Assembly: GCF_044704955.1 (NCBI RefSeq)
Contig: NC_091977.1
Coordinates: forward strand, 200,322,001 to 200,386,000
Reading direction: 5' to 3'
From: Pristiophorus japonicus
Lineage: Eukaryota
Length of the DNA: 64,000 bases
Part shown: positions 40,285-60,810 of the stretch, piece after piece
How the letters are laid out: each line of letters starts with the position of its first letter
How positions within the stretch are numbered: the stretch's first letter is position 1
The notes under the pieces: model-generated
Databases searched by the model: none
Told to the model about the DNA's origin: nothing
Seen by the model: only the letters and a program-made list of their open reading frames with translations
Translations under genes and position numbers: made by a program

Positions 40285-41024
40285 TAACAAGAAGCGACTT
40301 TGATGACATGATCTGATGATGTGTCATCAGCCGGTTTCCTTAAAGGTAATATGGCCAACTTTTTTTTAACAGTTGTTCTGTCAGAGTTCTACAGCATTGA
40401 GATACTGCAAACACTGACAAGCACTGCACAAAGCTGCATGGCGGTACCCAAGCTCTCCCATGACTCCTTCCATATGCACACAGGGAGGTTCTCTTCCCTT
40501 CCCATGGACGGAAGAGACCTCCCAAGGACACCGACACAGAGAGAAAGATAGAGGGATGGGTGGAGGTGCAAGGTCAGTTGGTGTGAGTAAGGATGTGCAG
40601 GGACAGAGTAGAGAATGCAGAGTGATGGGGCACAACAGGATGAGGTTGAGTCTGGCTTTGCAGTAACGTTTCATGATCTACTGAGATCATTGAAAGGTTT
40701 GTGCTGCTGCAGCCAGATACTTCTGATGACGTCACTGCTTGTGCTCTCCTGTGCAATGTGCAACCAGGCTGTGTCGGTGTCCTTGGGAGGTCTCTTCCGT
40801 CCATGGGAAGAGAAGAGAACCTCCCTGTGTGCATATGGAAGGAGTCATGGGAGAGCTTGGGTACCGCCATGCAGCTTTGTGCAGTGCTTGTCAGTGTTTG
40901 CAGTATCTCAATGCTGTAGAACTCTGACAGAACAACTGTTTAAAAAAAAGTTGGCCATATTACCTTTAAGGAAACCGGCTGATGACACATCATCAGATCA
41001 TGTCATCAAAGTCGCTTCTTGTTA
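40285..41024. repeat. Inverted repeat: arms 40285..40539 and 40769..41024, 229-bp spacer
   Basis: Arms are reverse complements with only one substitution and one 1-nt indel seen. Mirror-image ORFs appear in the ORF track. Confidence 0.95.
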
Positions 41025-49971: not shown

Positions 49972-50925
49972 TCAACCCTCAGGAGACTGAAGAGTAATTT
50001 TGCTTTCTGAAAAGTAAATGTTTCCAATTGGACTTCTTTAAAGACGACCTGTTTTTCTCTCTCTATCTATATGATTATCAAGTTAAAATATTTAAATGTT
50101 TTAAAATATAAGTATATTAGGGTAAATTTTACAAATTCATACTCCTGGTGCAGAACTTCAGCCACTGGGACCCTATATTCGGAATTTGAGCATAGACATC
50201 AGCGGGCTCTGCCGCATTTTCCATTATTCTCATAAGGAGAGGCTCCTGATAAAATTACCCACATAGTCTTACCACACTAGTATATTGCCTTCTAGTCAGG
50301 TACCTGTCAAATGAATTGTATTATTTTAAATGGTCACTGAGATCCTCAGAGCGAGTACATGACACTATAATTTGTCTTAAATAGTATTATTTACTACATT
50401 TTATATTAACAAGTACATACACGGATTTTAATGAAATGTATACATTACAACCAGGTTCTGTTTGTTGGATAAAGTGTCAAACCCAGATTTAACAAAATCA
50501 GAATCTAATACATAGAATTACATAGAATTTACAGCAGACATAGGCCATTTGGCCCAACTGGTCTGTGCTGGTGTTTATGCTCCACACAAGCCTCCCCCCA
50601 CCCCTACAACATCGAACCCTATCTGCATATTCTTCTAATACAAGAACATCTAAGCTTTTCTTTGTGGGTCACACAACTGCATACCGTAAAATATTGGGTG
50701 CCACATGTTGGCCTGGAATTCCTCAAGCGGTTCTCCTGATTTCGCGCCATAACCTTGGCAGGAGATTGGTGGAATCCGCAGAGAAAGAGCACAAATGGCA
50801 GAATTTATAAGCCATACAACTTTAATCAATATTCCGTTAACCTGCAAATATCTCAAGCTGTGGATGCAAATAACTCTTATATTCTGAAATGTATTCACTA
50901 ATTAGGTAATGACACTAAAAACAAC

Positions 50926-51602
50926 TGTTAGCGTTAGTGTTTTCTTAGAAGAATCACTCAACACTCAGGGTCGGTTCCAATGCTGAAGCAGCTTTTATTA
51001 CGCTCAGCGGGAAGGAAAAACTCAGGACCGTATCCAGGTTTCTCTTCACAGAACAAAGAGTTACATGTACCTTTATATGTTTCACAACAGTTACAAAACA
51101 GTTTACTACAGTTACACAGCCCATCACGGCTGGACACAAGCCAATCACAACGATTATAGATTACATATAGGTTCTTTAACCCAATAGAATTCTCCTACTA
51201 TCCAGGGAACCATATGTTCGGTTATTGTCAGCTTGGGCTGATCGATGGCTTTATAGGTTCTCTCCCTAGTTCTTTCATCTGGGAGAAATAATTGGTATAT
51301 AGCCTTGTTTACAGCAAATGGTTTCCCTCTTATCTTTCTTCCTGAAATAATTGGTTTCATGGCCTTGTTCACAGGAGATGGTTTCCTTCTTATCTCTGTC
51401 TTCCCAGGCATTCCTACAGTGGGCCTCACAGGGTTATTGCTCGGTCAGTGAACGTTCAACAGTTCACAGTTTGACTACCTGATTTCCCATAATGCCTGGG
51501 CAGCCATTTTATGTGTGTGTCCATTTAAGCTTATGTGAGTTCTAAATATCCAGCAGGTGCCTAATGCCTAAGTCTATATATATCTTTCGACTCTCTACAA
51601 CA
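50926..51602 (-). repeat. 3' LTR
   Basis: No difference seen from 56418..57094; AATAAA (minus) at 50994..50999; preceded by the PPT. Confidence 0.96.
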
Positions 51603-51603
51603 A

Positions 51604-51614
51604 TTCCCCCTTTC
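51604..51614 (-). other. Polypurine tract GAAAGGGGGAA
   Basis: Lies 1 nt upstream of the 3' LTR TG on the minus strand. Confidence 0.88.
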
Positions 51615-51739
51615 GGTAAAGGGACTAGTCCTAGTCCCCTTTTAACCGAAATACTGCCTTTATCTGATATTTGTGCACGGCCCAGTATTCCTTGCCTCAA
51701 CGTGCTGGCCAGTCACGCGGTTTCAGGAGTTCCGGTTGC

Positions 51740-53754
51740 TTAAATCAAATTAACAAAGGCTAGCTCCTCCCGTCCCCTTATCAAACAGGCTTGTTTAATA
51801 TCCAGGGAACGGTGATTAGTCCGTTTCCGCCATTTGTGGCGCCTGCATACCTGGCAGGCCATCACGCCCCATGTTATTGCTAAGATTAATTGTATACCGA
51901 CCAGTGTGTGTGAAATAATTCGGATCCATGGGTGGATGTTCACATTTATTCCCCAGTCCCAGACCTTTCTCCACCAACTCTGACTTTGTAAGTCTACCTC
52001 GGTATCTTCTTCCAGTTCTTTGATTTTAGTTTGTAGCTGGTGATAGATTTTTACGGATTGCCCCACTCTGAGCCTTACCTCCCGTAATACTTCGGTTAGA
52101 TGTGGGATAGGGACCTGCTCTGGCTCGTCATAATCCTGTAAATGATCATGGAGCTGATCGGTTACCTCGATAACTTCGGACTTCCGGCGCCTAACCTGGG
52201 TGATATGCGCTTGCCTGATCGCGGCAGGTCGTAGTGGTGTAAAGCAAAAGTTTGGCTGCGGTATAGGGCACTGCAGGTCATTATACTGGTATGAACGCTC
52301 TGTGGTAGAGACGCAGTATCTTCCCCTCCCTCCGTAGCCTGCCCTCGCGAAGTGCATGTGTGCGGGCACTATTTCTAGTACACACCCGTTGGTTCGGTTA
52401 AACCCGCACTCGTCTAGTTCACCTCGGCCCACCGGGTGAGGGCATACTGTGATTTCCCCCCCTTTGCTTGCAATCTGCTAGGGAAATCCCAGTAAGTATG
52501 TTGTTTTGACGAACGGCAGAGGTGGTGGTTAGGTAGTAGCGTATGGAGACATTTTCCCGTATTACTCCAATATTCTCTCGTTGGTATAGGGGGAACGGCC
52601 CTGAGTCCGGCGTGACTATAGGGATCATCAGGACTGTCCCTATCCCGGTAATCCTACCCATCTGGCAATCTGGAATTGCTGGGTATACTCTGGTCAGTCC
52701 CTTCAGAGTACAATTATCCAGTGTCCCCCTTTGGTTAGCCAACTGAGCTAAATCTTCCTGTTCTCTATCAATGAGGTGATTGATGGTTCTGGCGTGAGCT
52801 TCCATGACTGAGATGCCATCCAGCTGGATTTTGGCACCCTCCTTTCCTAGGTTGGCTTGGTCTTCCTGGTTTTGCTCCACCCTCTCCAATAACCCCTTCA
52901 TCACCCCTCTAAGCTGTTCCACCCTCTCATTTAATTCTTGTATGTCTATCGAGTTCACTACGGAGGTCTCTGTATTGAAAACGGTAGCAACATCATTAAC
53001 TATTTCCCTCTTCATCCTGGGGGCTAACCCCTGTCCCCGGAACTTACTGGCACCCATGGCATCGGCAGCCTGCTGCATTACAACTTTACTTAATACATTG
53101 TACATCTTCCTTGACTGTTCTGTACAGTATTCCAGCATCTGGATGCCTGAAATATTGATCAGAACAGGCACAATTTCATGTCTAACATTATCATACAACA
53201 GTTCCCCCTCGCTGTACATTACAATCCCATTCTCTGATCCCTTCGTAGTTATGGGGCAAGGCAGTTCCTCGGGCAATGTAGTGATTCTTATGGGGCGCGG
53301 TGTCGGAGGGGGTGAGAAACATACATACAATGATATTGCAGCCGCCCCCGCCTCCTCGTAATACCCACACAGCCCCACTCCCTTCTTGCGGATGACTGAT
53401 TGCTGGGATTGTCCCGGAGGCGCGCAAATTATGCCGAAAGTACATTCATCAGGCCCTTTGACATCCCTCCGTTTAATGCATCTGCTCCTTATACCCGTGG
53501 AGCACTGTACACATACTCTTATTCTTATTAGGATTCTTATTAGGATTCACTTGTAACCATGCATTAAAATAAGTCCTGTCCTTGCTCCAGTCCTTGGCTG
53601 CTGGGATGCACATTCCGGCCGTTAAATTAAACAAGACTCCATAGTTCATATAGTTGTTTATTTCCAGCGTGCTCTGCTGTCCGTCGGTGTTGCCCAGGGT
53701 ACGTGCATGTCGCAGGGCTATCCAGATTACGAGTAGCGCCGTTCGTATTCCCAT
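51740..53754 (-). pseudogene. env: Envelope/fusion glycoprotein gene (~670 codons reconstructed) with two frameshifts
   Basis: Signal peptide MGIRTALLVIWIAL (ATG 53754), Cys-rich N-terminal part, furin site RMKR (53007..53018), heptad/coiled-coil segment, Cys-rich C-terminal part, W-rich SWWRKVWDW, TM ISHTLVGIQLILAITWGVMAC, basic RRHKWRKR. Frameshifts at a 12-bp duplication (~53515-53550) and in a G7 run (52456..52462). Confidence 0.85.
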
Positions 53755-56355
53755 TCCGGTAAGTATTATCTGTAATTTTAAACAGACGGCCTGGTCGTCA
53801 CCAGGGGTTAAGTTTTTTGCTCTACGAGAGTCCCTGTCACCCTGCAAAATCAGAAGCACAAGGTTATAATCGAACCATTTCGAGCTGAATCTGTAGGGCA
53901 TGCGCCCGTGTCTTTACTCACTTAAATATTACCCAAACTCCTATGACCAAGGCCAAAGCTATTCCTCCAAACATCGCTGTCTGCTTTACCATTAGGTTGG
54001 GTTTGTGGACTACACCTACCCACCGTGGGGTACATTGGCTCTATTGCCAGAGGTGACGGTGCTATGGCTGCGCACTGCACTATCCGTCTAGTCCCGTTAT
54101 CTCTTCCAGCCTGTTTATCTTCGCTTTTAACTCTTCAATTTGTTTTATTGAATATCTATTTCTTTATTGTATCAGGCAAGTATTATTACATAAGCTAGTT
54201 CTGTTTTTATTTTTGTTTCCTCTGTTAGGTGAGTCTTTTTTTTCTATTAAGAAATCCAAATTAATAATGTTCAGTATAAAACGGCTGTCAATGGAAAGGG
54301 TTAACTCCTTTCCAGGTTTGTAAGAAGACCTGATGTCATTACGTGACTTCACGTAATCATCTGAAAAAAAAAAGTCTTTGTGCCTTCAAAACTGGCTTCG
54401 AAATTAGGAATCCGTTAAAAACAGCATAAATCATTAGAGTAAACTCCAATGTTTTCTTAACTTCTAATTCAAGTACTTGCCAAAGAATTTTTTTTTTTTT
54501 TAATTGTTTTAAAACAAGACCACACATACAATAGCAATTTTGTTTACTGAAATTCAATTCTGTTTTTTTTTATTTCTCTCTTTCTCCTCGTTATCTTCAA
54601 AACCCTCCTGCTTGTTTAGACTGTTCGGGACATTTTTGATAAACACTGTCCATTTTAGAAATCTTTTCAAACTGCATTGAAACTTTTGAAAATTCGAATC
54701 CATGTAGAGTGTTTTTTACTTATTCCAATTATTTTTTTTTCTCTTCTAATTAAACCAATATCTTTTTCACAGCAAACATCAACTAGTATTTAGTAAGTTA
54801 TGTCTTTTTCCATTTAGTCCGTTACATCTTTTTTTTTCCTTTCTTCAAATTAGGTTTTGTATTTTACACGGAGGGTTCGTAACTCCATAAAGTTGTTAAT
54901 TTAAAATCATTTGTTTACTTTCAAAGTGGCGTCTTTATCTTTTTCTTTTTCTCCATAACTGGAATGGAGACCAGCTTTGAGAGTTTGAGTGCTGCCTTTC
55001 GTTATCTCAAAATGCTCCAGTTTCAAAGTCGTTACTAAAGCTTGCTGTTTTTTAACATTTTCCAAAAGTTCCTTTTACACCTTCGCAGATAGCTCGCCAC
55101 TTGCCCAGGAGTTTGACCTGATCAGATTTAATTTAATCTTTTTCTTTTTTTTTTTAATCCACCTCAGTATTTCCTGTGCCTTCTCTGAATATCTCAAAAT
55201 CCCAATTCAAACTTTGTAATTTCAATCTTTATTTAAAACTTTTTTTTTTAGAAGCTCTCTTTTTTTTTTAAGCATTCTTCATCTCATTCCGAGACCAAAT
55301 TTATGTCTTTCAACCCAATCAATCATTGCATGTTTTCTTTCGGCAAGTAAGTGAGCATGTCAAATAAATATTTTGCTCAACAAACCTATTCTTTATTTGT
55401 TTATTTTCCTAGCTCCGTAACTTATCATCCGAATAAATCCACACCTGCGTTTCTAACTTAAATGTCTTAAAACTTCCCACATACAGGACAACATTACAAA
55501 GGGTTTAAAAAAAAGACTTTCACTCTGTTTCTAAAATAAACAGACACTTGCATTCCTCTTCCAACCAGGCTTTCGGAACATGAAAACATAAAAAAATTCA
55601 TTCTGCAGTCAAAAATCACACAGACACTTCTCACTCAACGATTTACAACAGTCTCTCTTCTTGTTTTGGCCGGCTCTATTTTTGGATCCATGACCTTTCA
55701 GGGAATTCGTAGTTTTATCTAAATAATTCCTCACATAACTAATTCCTGAGGATTCCACCCTGCTTTAATCATTTTTTCAATTAGCTTCTTTTGTTTTTCC
55801 GCCAGGTGGCGGGTAAGCGACCCTTCTGGTCCCCACTCGAGTTTACTTGTTTTCATGGCCATTCCTGGGTAGGACTGGTATCGTTAGGAATCTACTCTCA
55901 GAGGTCCGCTTTCTTTCTAGCGCGACTTGTAGTAAACTGTCTCTTGCCTACTGTCAGGTCACAAGTTCTGCTGTTACACAAACTTATACAATTCTTAAAA
56001 ACGCGTTTAAGCAATTCCCGCAGTGCTCTACGTATCCTTAACGACTACCTACCACCGCTCAGCCCGTTGGTCCGACCCTGTTCACAGGTTTGGATTCCGT
56101 TAGCCGCTGTACACCGCTTGGTTCTACCCCGGGGTATTTCAAATTTCACTACTGGGTCCGGAAGATGTCTCTCGGTATCACGATCCCACGGTCTAAGTGT
56201 GTTCCCTACGCCTACTTGGTTCCTGGCCGTCACGTGGGACAAAAGTCCTCTTAATTCAGGCTCAGGCTAGGCGTTTGAGATATTAGACCGTCTCCTCATG
56301 TCGATCAACCAGCTTCCACCTTCCGCACCCTTTATACTTAAAAATTGTTTTTTAT

Positions 56356-56364
56356 ACTCACCCG
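56356..56364 (-). promoter_or_regulatory. Putative major splice donor CGG|GTGAGT
   Basis: Consensus donor ~37 nt downstream of the PBS. Candidate acceptors TTTTGCAG|G (53842) and AATTACAG|A (53770) lie just upstream of the env ATG. Confidence 0.65.
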
Positions 56365-56398
56365 GGTTTTTTCCAAGGGCGTCCAGCGACTCCGGGAA

Positions 56399-56416
56399 AT
56401 CCCGTCGACTACGCCA
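56399..56416 (-). other. Primer-binding site, tRNA-Ser type (TGGCGTAGTCGACGGGAT)
   Basis: Lies 1 nt after the 5' LTR CA; 16/18 match to the complement of the vertebrate tRNA-Ser 3' end as recalled (TGGCGTAGTCGGCAGGAT). Confidence 0.85.
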
Positions 56417-56417
56417 T

Positions 56418-57094
56418 TGTTAGCGTTAGTGTTTTCTTAGAAGAATCACTCAACACTCAGGGTCGGTTCCAATGCTGAAGCAGCTTTTATTACGCTCAGC
56501 GGGAAGGAAAAACTCAGGACCGTATCCAGGTTTCTCTTCACAGAACAAAGAGTTACATGTACCTTTATATGTTTCACAACAGTTACAAAACAGTTTACTA
56601 CAGTTACACAGCCCATCACGGCTGGACACAAGCCAATCACAACGATTATAGATTACATATAGGTTCTTTAACCCAATAGAATTCTCCTACTATCCAGGGA
56701 ACCATATGTTCGGTTATTGTCAGCTTGGGCTGATCGATGGCTTTATAGGTTCTCTCCCTAGTTCTTTCATCTGGGAGAAATAATTGGTATATAGCCTTGT
56801 TTACAGCAAATGGTTTCCCTCTTATCTTTCTTCCTGAAATAATTGGTTTCATGGCCTTGTTCACAGGAGATGGTTTCCTTCTTATCTCTGTCTTCCCAGG
56901 CATTCCTACAGTGGGCCTCACAGGGTTATTGCTCGGTCAGTGAACGTTCAACAGTTCACAGTTTGACTACCTGATTTCCCATAATGCCTGGGCAGCCATT
57001 TTATGTGTGTGTCCATTTAAGCTTATGTGAGTTCTAAATATCCAGCAGGTGCCTAATGCCTAAGTCTATATATATCTTTCGACTCTCTACAACA
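56418..57094 (-). repeat. 5' LTR
   Basis: 677 bp, apparently identical to the 3' LTR; contains two ~60-bp tandem CCAAT-containing repeats and TATAAA. Confidence 0.96.
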
Positions 57095-57165
57095 CAACCC
57101 TTTACGATCTTCTAGGCCTACAAAACTCCAACAGAACAAACCAGCAAATAAAACATATATAAAGT

Positions 57166-57758
57166 GGGCTGGAGTTTTGAAAAGTTTGTGACTGGGTTTT
57201 CACTGCTATTTGACCCTCCACGGCGAAAACCTGGTCGCAAAGCCCGGGCAGGATCCTCAAGTACCTGTTTTCAGCGGCGATGGGACATACCACCGGGGTG
57301 GTACGTCCTATCGCCGCTGCAATGACGCCGATTGAGTTTGCATCCAACTTTCAGCTCTCTCACGACCCGTACGCCGTGCCCAGAATAGCGACAGGTCAAA
57401 CCTGTCGGTACAGCCTGCCAGCAACGGTAAGTATGAAAACCTGCAAAAAAGATAAGTTAAAGTATTTATTTTTGAATTATTTTTCAGCAATTTGCTAGCT
57501 AAGGGTTTTTTAAATGTTTTTGGAATGTTTTTTGCAATTTTTTTTCCCCCTCCCAAGGCCTCTCTCGCAGCGATCCCAGCCCCGGACTAAATTTGGTGAA
57601 ACTCGCGTTTTTGCACCATGAATCCTCGTGCCATGCCCCCCCTTACCAGACGTAAAACCCGAAAGTTCGGCCTAAAAACGGTTGCGCCGCGAAAACGGTA
57701 AGTTTCATGTATTGCTACCGTTTTCGTCGAAAAAACCCGAAAGCCGATAATCCGGCCC
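57166..57758. mobile_element. GC-rich MITE
   Basis: Termini GGGCTGGAGTTT ... GATAATCCGGCCC. Confidence 0.62.
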
Positions 57759-60007: not shown

Positions 60008-60810
60008 AACATAAGAACAAGAAATAGGAGCATGAGTAGGCCATACGGCCCTTCGAGCCTGCTCTGCCATTCAATAAGATCATGGCTGATCATTGACCTC
60101 AACTCCACTTTCCCGCTCGATCCGCATATCCCTTGATTCCCCTCGTGTCCAAAAATCTATCCATCTCAGCCATGAATATATTCAATGACTCAGCATCTAC
60201 AACCCATTGGGATAATGAATTGCAAAGATTCACAACTCTCTGAGTGAAGAAATTCCTCCTCATCTCCGTCTTAAATGACCGACCCCTTATCCTGAGGCTA
60301 TGTCTCCTAGTTCGAGATTTTCCAGCCAGGGGTAACAACCTCTCAGCATCTACCCTGTCAATCCCCTTCAGAATCTTTTAAGTCACAATTAGATCACCTC
60401 AAATCCTTCTAAACTCGAGAGAGTATAGGCCCAATGCACTCAATCTCCCCCCATTGGACAACTCTCTCATCCCAGGGATCAATATAGTGAACCTTTGTTG
60501 CACCGCCTCTAAAACAAGTATGTCCTTTCACAGATAAGGAGACCAAAACTGCACACAGTACTCCAGGTGTGGTCTCATCAAAGCCCTATACAATTGTAGT
60601 ATGTCTTCCTTGCTCTTGTACTCCAACCCCCTTGGAATAAAGGCCAACGTGCCATTTGCCTTCCGAATTGCTTGCTGTACCTGCATGCTAACTCTGTGTG
60701 TTTCCTAAATCTCTCTGGACACCAACATTTAACAGTTTCCCACCATTTAAAAAATATTATGTTTTTCTATTCTTCCTAGCAAACTGAACAACCTCAAACT
60801 TCCTCACACA
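60008..60810 (-). mobile_element. CR1 LINE 3' fragment
   Basis: ACATAAGAACAAGAAATAGG tail; RRNFFTQRVVNL; RPHLEYCVQFWSP. Confidence 0.9.

Follow-up and report, generated by a model that had tools for sequence, protein, structure and literature searches.

A broken env gene of predicted F type in a young, pol-less shark endogenous retrovirus whose relatives probably carry an SnRV-like polymerase

The window analysed here, the whole stretch of 64,000 nucleotides from Pristiophorus japonicus, contains a provirus on its minus strand. With good confidence we regard this element as a pol-less copy, with a broken env gene, of a young shark endogenous retrovirus (ERV) whose Env is predicted to be of F type (class Ib) and whose Pol, carried by full-length relatives, is likely of the snakehead retrovirus (SnRV) kind and not lokiretroviral. 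The predicted structure would make the family an F-type (class Ib) retroviral Env outside both the lokiretroviruses and the foamy viruses. An earlier note, written from the sequence alone, had proposed a class I F-type fusion protein in a lokiretrovirus-like lineage; the first part of that proposal agrees with the predicted fold, and the second conflicts with the polymerase of the relatives.

The provirus in the window

The provirus (50926-57094, minus strand, as are all features given below; 6,169 bp) lacks pol and is bounded by two 677-bp LTRs. The 5' LTR (56418..57094, TG...CA) and the 3' LTR (50926..51602, with AATAAA near 51000) show 0 mismatches over 677 positions, and a 4-bp target-site duplication stands at both ends (left copy GTTG, 57095..57098; right copy 50922..50925). 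Directly after the 5' LTR lies a primer-binding site (56399..56416) that is kept in sibling copies and presumably pairs with tRNA-Ser; the polypurine tract is found at 51603..51618, with a short inverted repeat in and just upstream of it (51607-51636). Between the start of gag and env, pol is absent. What remains of gag is its start (55740..55862), where the match to pol-bearing relatives ends at element base 1355, and the place of the relatives' gag and pol is taken by about 1.8 kb of A/T-rich non-coding filler (53974..55739; GC 33% vs 51% in the gag-pol of one relative), for the source of which blastn and tblastx against nine relatives gave no useful match. A small single-TM ORF of the pol-env interval, about 66 aa long in one full-length relative (L034) and possibly an accessory protein, has left a remnant at 53918..53992. 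No RNA record holding the element was listed; judged by sequence motifs alone, a candidate splice donor for an env mRNA (G|GTGAGT) is located at 56360..56361 and a candidate acceptor upstream of the env ATG at 53842..53843. At the slow rate that PMC4422223 assumes for sharks (2.2e-10 per site and year), identical LTRs would make the insertion less than roughly 10 million years old, and probably far younger.

A public contig of 339 bases (run X1, depth 14) joins the flanks 50779-50920 and 57094-57237 without the element and carries 7 differences on one flank side, a weak hint of either an empty allele or a paralogous site. The window also contains several RT-encoding LINE-like copies in both orientations (within 22064-49479 and 60022-60704), which we take to be CR1-like, and a 180-bp inverted repeat of 99% identity (40360-40948).

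Env reading frames and three inherited breaks

The env gene opens with an ATG at 53754, after which comes a hydrophobic stretch resembling a signal peptide; it ends at a stop at 51740 and is distributed over three pieces. Piece 1 (53473..53754) encodes the signal peptide and the first half of a Cys-rich N-terminal module. Piece 2 (52419..53546) provides the rest of this module, a Pro/Thr linker, F2-like strands and the RMKR site, and continues with the fusion-peptide region, HRA and domain III, whereas the Cys-rich domains I/II, HRB, a W-rich membrane-proximal stretch, the TM segment and a basic tail belong to piece 3 (51740..52477). The motif layout described previously is thus recovered completely in the three minus-strand frames: the signal is followed by GIVMYSEGELLYDNVRHEIVPVLINIS, RMKR, the heptad segment NSIDIQELNERVEQLRGVMKGLLERV and VLMIPIV...PLYQRENIG, and then by a Cys-rich part, a second heptad, the W-rich stretch and the TM segment. 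That parts list was right for the core motifs but had overlooked the N-terminal module between signal peptide and F-like core. The module comprises roughly 125 aa with 8 Cys and is conserved among shark relatives; taken alone, it gave no Atlas match, a model pLDDT of 48.7 and a best Z of 3.7. More distant F-type Env relatives (P0148, P0128, P0135 and P0142) have different N-terminal modules, that of P0148 with a weak V-set Ig match (E 0.045), and P0128 is named Ig-like by UniRef.

Two frameshifts had been claimed in this gene, but we find three breaks. The first, near 53510-53546, shifts the frame within a short tandem repeat; it ends the env frame after about 94 codons and is common to 18 of 33 other loci; the second, a frameshift at a G run (52456..52462), recurs in 6 of the 33. 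The third had been overlooked: 41 codons are absent near 52752, within piece 2, and the same gap is found in 17 of these loci. The 33 loci are the top of the hit lists, so that these counts are not genome-wide frequencies; the search of the shark's own genome returned at least 195 matches from 148 scored candidates. Because the window copy lacks the 41 codons, the post-cleavage subunit had been put at ~420 aa; in an unbroken relative it measures about 462 aa. With three breaks, the first after about 94 codons, the window copy cannot fuse membranes.

The frameshift at the G run, previously thought a possible sequencing error, is inherited, since sibling copies have the same break. In a tree of env DNA the window groups with three copies broken at the G run (support 98/95), and the breaks are nested, the first preceding the 41-codon gap and this gap preceding the G-run break. 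The G-run state requires three changes over the whole env tree, as slippage or conversion would give. Public contigs contain both forms, but the listed pieces do not reach far enough to either side of the run to bridge it, and we therefore relied on the sibling tree. The nesting of the shared breaks shows that the pol-less subfamily continued to multiply with its env already broken, and it likely did so by being packaged and integrated by the enzymes of full-length relatives, with which the window element has LTRs, primer site and polypurine tract in common. Sibling copies with an intact env, which the earlier note had advised to look for, do exist, L030 among them. One further locus (L029) consists of tandem proviruses with common LTRs, and the envs of L011 and L012, 5.2 kb from each other on C7, are identical.

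The predicted fold of Env

An AlphaFold model was obtained for the natural open-frame sibling L030, the env of which has a short out-of-frame patch within the N-terminal module, using about 50 aligned relatives. Its core is mostly predicted at pLDDT 70-95; weak points are a pTM of 0.42 and 249 of 708 residues below pLDDT 50. Foldseek against the PDB yielded 250 chains at E<=0.001, the best 40 of which are all paramyxo- or pneumovirus F proteins. Matches to hPIV3, RSV and henipavirus F reach E values of 1e-10 to 1e-8 (best 1.2e-10) at whole-chain TM-scores of about 0.3. In VIA-align the top nine matches have Z values of 11.7-10.7 and place Env residues 173-626 onto F 26-485; for Nipah F, 275 residues are aligned with a Z of 11.5 and an rmsd of 4.2. 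The model has the nested domain I-III core to which both subunits contribute. The RxKR site is found at residues 246-249 and helices at 249-363, 593-627 and 646-684 of the unbroken sibling; the segment after the furin site is not strongly hydrophobic, having no 19-aa window over 1.4, and looks amphipathic at best. The suggested combination of AlphaFold and Foldseek thus led to F proteins, and at the level of a model (PDB E 1e-10, Z about 11) these results support a class I F-type and not a gamma-type fold.

Comparison with other collections broadens this picture. The top Atlas matches are Fusion_gly/Baculo_F clusters (score 0.94, 210/256 features, recognition below the Atlas threshold). In BFVD the best named retroviral fold match is the Env of WEHV-1 (rank 4, E 2e-12), followed by that of WDSV (rank 11, E 6.5e-10), which has the highest identity among the matches listed (18%), and, at rank 42, by the Env of feline foamy virus; the best 50 rows name no SnRV Env. 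The earlier exclusion of an epsilon-type Env is hardly compatible with the ranks of the two walleye proteins.

Sequence comparison alone is less talkative. Neither TLV_coat nor Pfam Fusion_gly (PF00523) was matched by the three window frames or three unbroken envs, Pfam and PDB sequence searches with the window frames and one unbroken env gave nothing informative, and Baculo_F was matched by 1 of 50 family members only (E 0.0011). A family profile searched against the PDB had its best match in the TM subunit of foamy Env, over the TM Cys-rich region (E 0.0024). Resemblance to foamy Env had been set against resemblance to F as a means of refuting the F reading; foamy Env is indeed the best profile match, yet it is itself F-like (PMC11468914). 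As had been stated, CX6CC and the immunosuppressive motif (ISD) are absent, here from the unbroken sibling Env. A gamma-type env of the same genome, used as positive control, matched TLV_coat at 1.7e-11 and has both ISD and CX6CC. Related F-type Envs come from other sharks, a skate and three frogs, which fits the proposed setting in a cartilaginous fish.

Full-length relatives

Pol-bearing relatives of about 9.4 kb, referred to here as the helper, are 94-97% identical to the window element in their LTRs and about 95% (aa) in env. They encode a gag with two zinc knuckles and a PR-RT-tether-RH-IN polyprotein, gag and pol being in frame across one TGA in all eight copies checked, which suggests readthrough. 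Twelve such relatives were fetched, most of them picked for long pol frames; in six, the gag, pol and env frames are all open, and three of these six have identical LTRs. Together with the identical LTRs of the window copy this means that the family is young.

The A/T-rich filler also replaces gag in L041, L043 and L044, which keep most of pol, so that a gag-less, pol-bearing subfamily exists as well. A 4-bp target-site duplication was seen in 9 of 17 independent pol-less copies (that of the window included) but, among 11 pol-bearing copies, in one (Fisher p 0.04, off-by-one ends corrected by hand); a second integrase may act on part of the pol-less copies.

Placement of the polymerase and rival origins

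The helper RT is characterised by LTIDY, NGFW, LPQGFH and QYVDD. If the family were lokiretroviral, it would be the first such lineage in a cartilaginous fish, and its F-like Env with RxKR, the LTIDY and NGFW characters common to both RTs and the dual RNase H would fit; the latter, seen as matches to both RT_RNaseH_2 and RNase_H, is a tether plus RNase H common to all retroviruses. The integrase, which in lokiretroviruses is CGIN1-related, scores 208-209 bits in pairwise comparison against Pols with the Loki signature, above class I (138-183), but non-Loki Pols equal or exceed this value (up to 283). The helper RNase H scores 115 bits against the MLV type, 23 against PDB 2lsn, which we take to be a foamy RNase H, and about 20 against two Loki-signature Pols. 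Lokiretroviral RNase H groups with that of foamy viruses (group I), and the Loki consensus RTs have CPFGY and IYVDD (supplement of PMC7947760), neither of which is present in the helper with its LPQGF and QYVDD. For the trees, three database Pols labelled by their RT motif signature served as Loki stand-ins. Lokiretroviral RT is sister to that of all other retroviruses, and in a 49-row RT tree the stand-ins fall outside the 99/98 clade that includes the helper; an AU test rejects a grouping of helper and Loki on RT+tether (p 0.0002), although not on RT alone (p 0.07). Lokiretroviral Envs, moreover, are about 510-520 aa long, lack the N-terminal module and have a hydrophobic fusion peptide. We therefore consider the lokiretroviral reading largely refuted and very improbable; six chondrichthyan genomes have no asterisk in the table of PMC7947760, as far as that source was available, which we take to mark them as Loki-negative. 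A class I ERV related to epsilonretroviruses, with a native epsilon-type Env, is an unlikely but less remote origin. Among named retroviral proteins the walleye Envs match the fold best, a stop is all that separates the gag and pol reading frames, MLV-type RT-RH gives the highest score for the whole Pol (370 bits), and the helper clade adjoins class I in the RT+tether tree. A grouping with class I is rejected, however, on RT (p 0.017) as well as on RT+tether (p 0.0006), with a class I set that is motif-defined and holds one named gammaretrovirus and no WDSV; the helper RT is without the class I characters xxQDL/HDL and DAFF/NAFF, and its Env has 707 aa vs 1159-1317 in the walleye models. An assignment of Pol to class I on the strength of the 370-bit match was dropped after the scores of RT alone (MLV 161-166 vs foamy 144-155) and the tree rejection. 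The RT phylogeny that had been recommended thus supports neither Loki nor class I on RT+tether. In a hand count over 245 RT columns, SnRV shares 113 positions with the helper, MuLV 100, WDSV (third of the four) 93 and one Loki consensus 91. This lead of about 5 points over MuLV comes from counting by hand, SnRV being in no tree, and two protein searches and one viral-contig scan returned no named SnRV, WDSV or Loki Pol; on balance, the sequence characters make an SnRV-like helper Pol the probable assignment.

Least probable by our estimate, and hardly to be expected, is a recent capture of env from a virus with a negative-strand RNA genome (paramyxo-, lispi- or chu-like) instead of inheritance among retroviruses. 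In its favour, glycoproteins of lispi/arli-like and chu-like viruses and of fish filoviruses rank high in BFVD, and the Atlas top clusters are mostly Negarnaviricota. Identity to these negative-strand glycoproteins is, however, 9-15%, the best profile match is foamy Env, every named sequence relative among the 10 that were looked up belongs to a shark, skate or frog genome, and several divergent F-type env lineages follow pol in this genome.

Probable exchange of env within the Pol clade

In this genome, 46 loci have an RT at least 68% identical. Their env is of F type at 20 loci and of gamma type at 19, one locus has both types, and six are without env; the gamma-type envs of this clade carry CWVC, ISD and CX6CC. 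The presence of both types in one shallow Pol clade makes one exchange hard to avoid, and from the sequences at least one swap and likely two appear to have occurred. A DNA tree (1,080 columns) groups one F lineage with one gamma lineage at 99/98, and a single split between F-type and gamma-type loci is rejected on DNA with p 0.008, a test made on 18 hand-picked loci of the 46 with groups named after the tree had been seen. On protein RT alone, single origins of the env types are not rejected (p 0.20 and 0.24); here L064, the env of which lies 5 kb from pol, and the six env-less loci were dropped and L045 was relabelled as gamma-type. The distant F-type loci entered the exchange tests without a check of their LTR bounds. 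Env would thus be an exchangeable cassette in the surrounding Pol clade, of F type in some lineages and gamma-type in others, and the exchange could have run either way. L068 and L073, the pols of which are about 90% identical, have F-type envs from different env clades, possibly by an F-to-F exchange.

Discussion

Reading the mechanism from the predicted fold, an unbroken Env would be translated from a spliced mRNA as a precursor with a signal peptide, would form a trimer and would be cleaved by furin at RxKR. The small Cys-rich module would, judging by its position ahead of the F core, bind the receptor; this placement is as in coronavirus spike and contrasts with foamy Env, in which the module sits inside the core. 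Foamy Env also has a leader peptide. In the long post-cleavage subunit, HRA is expected to extend into a coiled coil and its N-terminal peptide to enter the target membrane, whereupon HRB presumably zips back to drive membrane fusion. The window copy itself is a dead passenger.

Wang and Han 2021 (PMC7947760) left four scenarios for the origin of retroviral env, and foamy Env has been described as F-like within a split into classes Ia and Ib in which orthoretroviral Env is placed in Ia (PMC11468914); for Fernandez et al., an F-like fold distinguishes foamy viruses from orthoretroviruses. A tentative generalisation, to which we give somewhat less than even weight, is that the F-type Env (Loki, foamy, walleye and SnRV-like of shark and frog) is ancestral among retroviruses and the gamma-type later, that in this shark genome the two unrelated fusogens have been swapped in both directions within a single shallow and still active Pol clade, and that N-terminal modules, one of them Ig-like, are interchangeable on the F core, as in coronavirus spike. 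An F-type Env on a Pol that is neither lokiretroviral nor foamy, together with the walleye match, would extend this fold over the basal branches of the retroviral tree and would favour it as the ancestral retroviral Env. Young open frames and gamma-type sister lineages in the same genome would make exchange between fusogen classes countable, and a compact retroviral class Ib Env of 707 aa is a candidate for structure work. In the accessible parts of the literature searched we found no report of SnRV-like or shark ERVs with an F-type Env; the search also covered PMC13524379, PMC12583693, PMC12193657, PMC11521997, PMC13709493, 10.1101/2024.03.17.585361, 10.1101/2021.11.05.467493 and 10.1101/2023.10.26.564294. 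Nor was a report found of an F-like fold for WDSV or WEHV Env, which Calcraft et al. 2024 (Cell) may cover.

Several known systems invite comparison. SnRV-related ERVs form the clade Huo of Xu et al. 2018 (PMC6001957); they include CmiERV lineage I of the elephant shark (PMC4422223) and are the 'class III SnRV-related' ERVs of Chen et al. (10.1101/2021.11.23.469661). The latter study, in its accessible part, screened gamma- and beta-type Env only and reports frequent Env/Pol recombination, with SnRV-related Pol and gamma-type Env among the recombinants. The shark family resembles this group in its RT (LTIDY, NGFW, LPQGFH, QYVDD; the hand count puts SnRV first of four named RTs), in a non-foamy, MLV-type RNase H, in its occurrence in cartilaginous fish and in env exchange, which is already described there with gamma-type Env. 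It differs in that its Env is of F type, of which the accessible parts of the group's papers give no description, and in that only the small TM ORF was seen, whereas a 3' ORF and several accessory ORFs occur in SnRV. With lokiretroviruses it shares an F-like Env that has RxKR, a coiled coil and a TM segment, the order LTR-gag-pol-env and a tether plus RNase H (PMC7947760, accessible part), but it departs from them in its RT signature, the type of its RNase H and its place in the tree; the shark Env is about 200 aa longer, has an extra N-terminal module and gives no PF00523 match, and its fusion peptide is less hydrophobic. The Envs of WEHV-1 and WDSV, likewise without gamma-type hallmarks and described for epsilonretroviruses as distinct and uncharacterised (PMC9967133 and PMC3758190, accessible parts), come closest in fold among named retroviral proteins but are much longer, and the shark Pol falls outside the class I set in trees without WDSV. 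Foamy Env has the same class Ib core and, over the Cys-rich part of TM, is the best match of the sequence profile, but a large RBD is inserted inside its core (PMC11468914), unlike the small N-terminal module of the shark protein. Paramyxo- and pneumovirus F proteins, finally, have in common with the shark Env the domain I-III core, the cleavage site, HRA/HRB and the TM segment at 9-15% identity; the shark Env differs from them by its N-terminal module and by being encoded in an LTR element.
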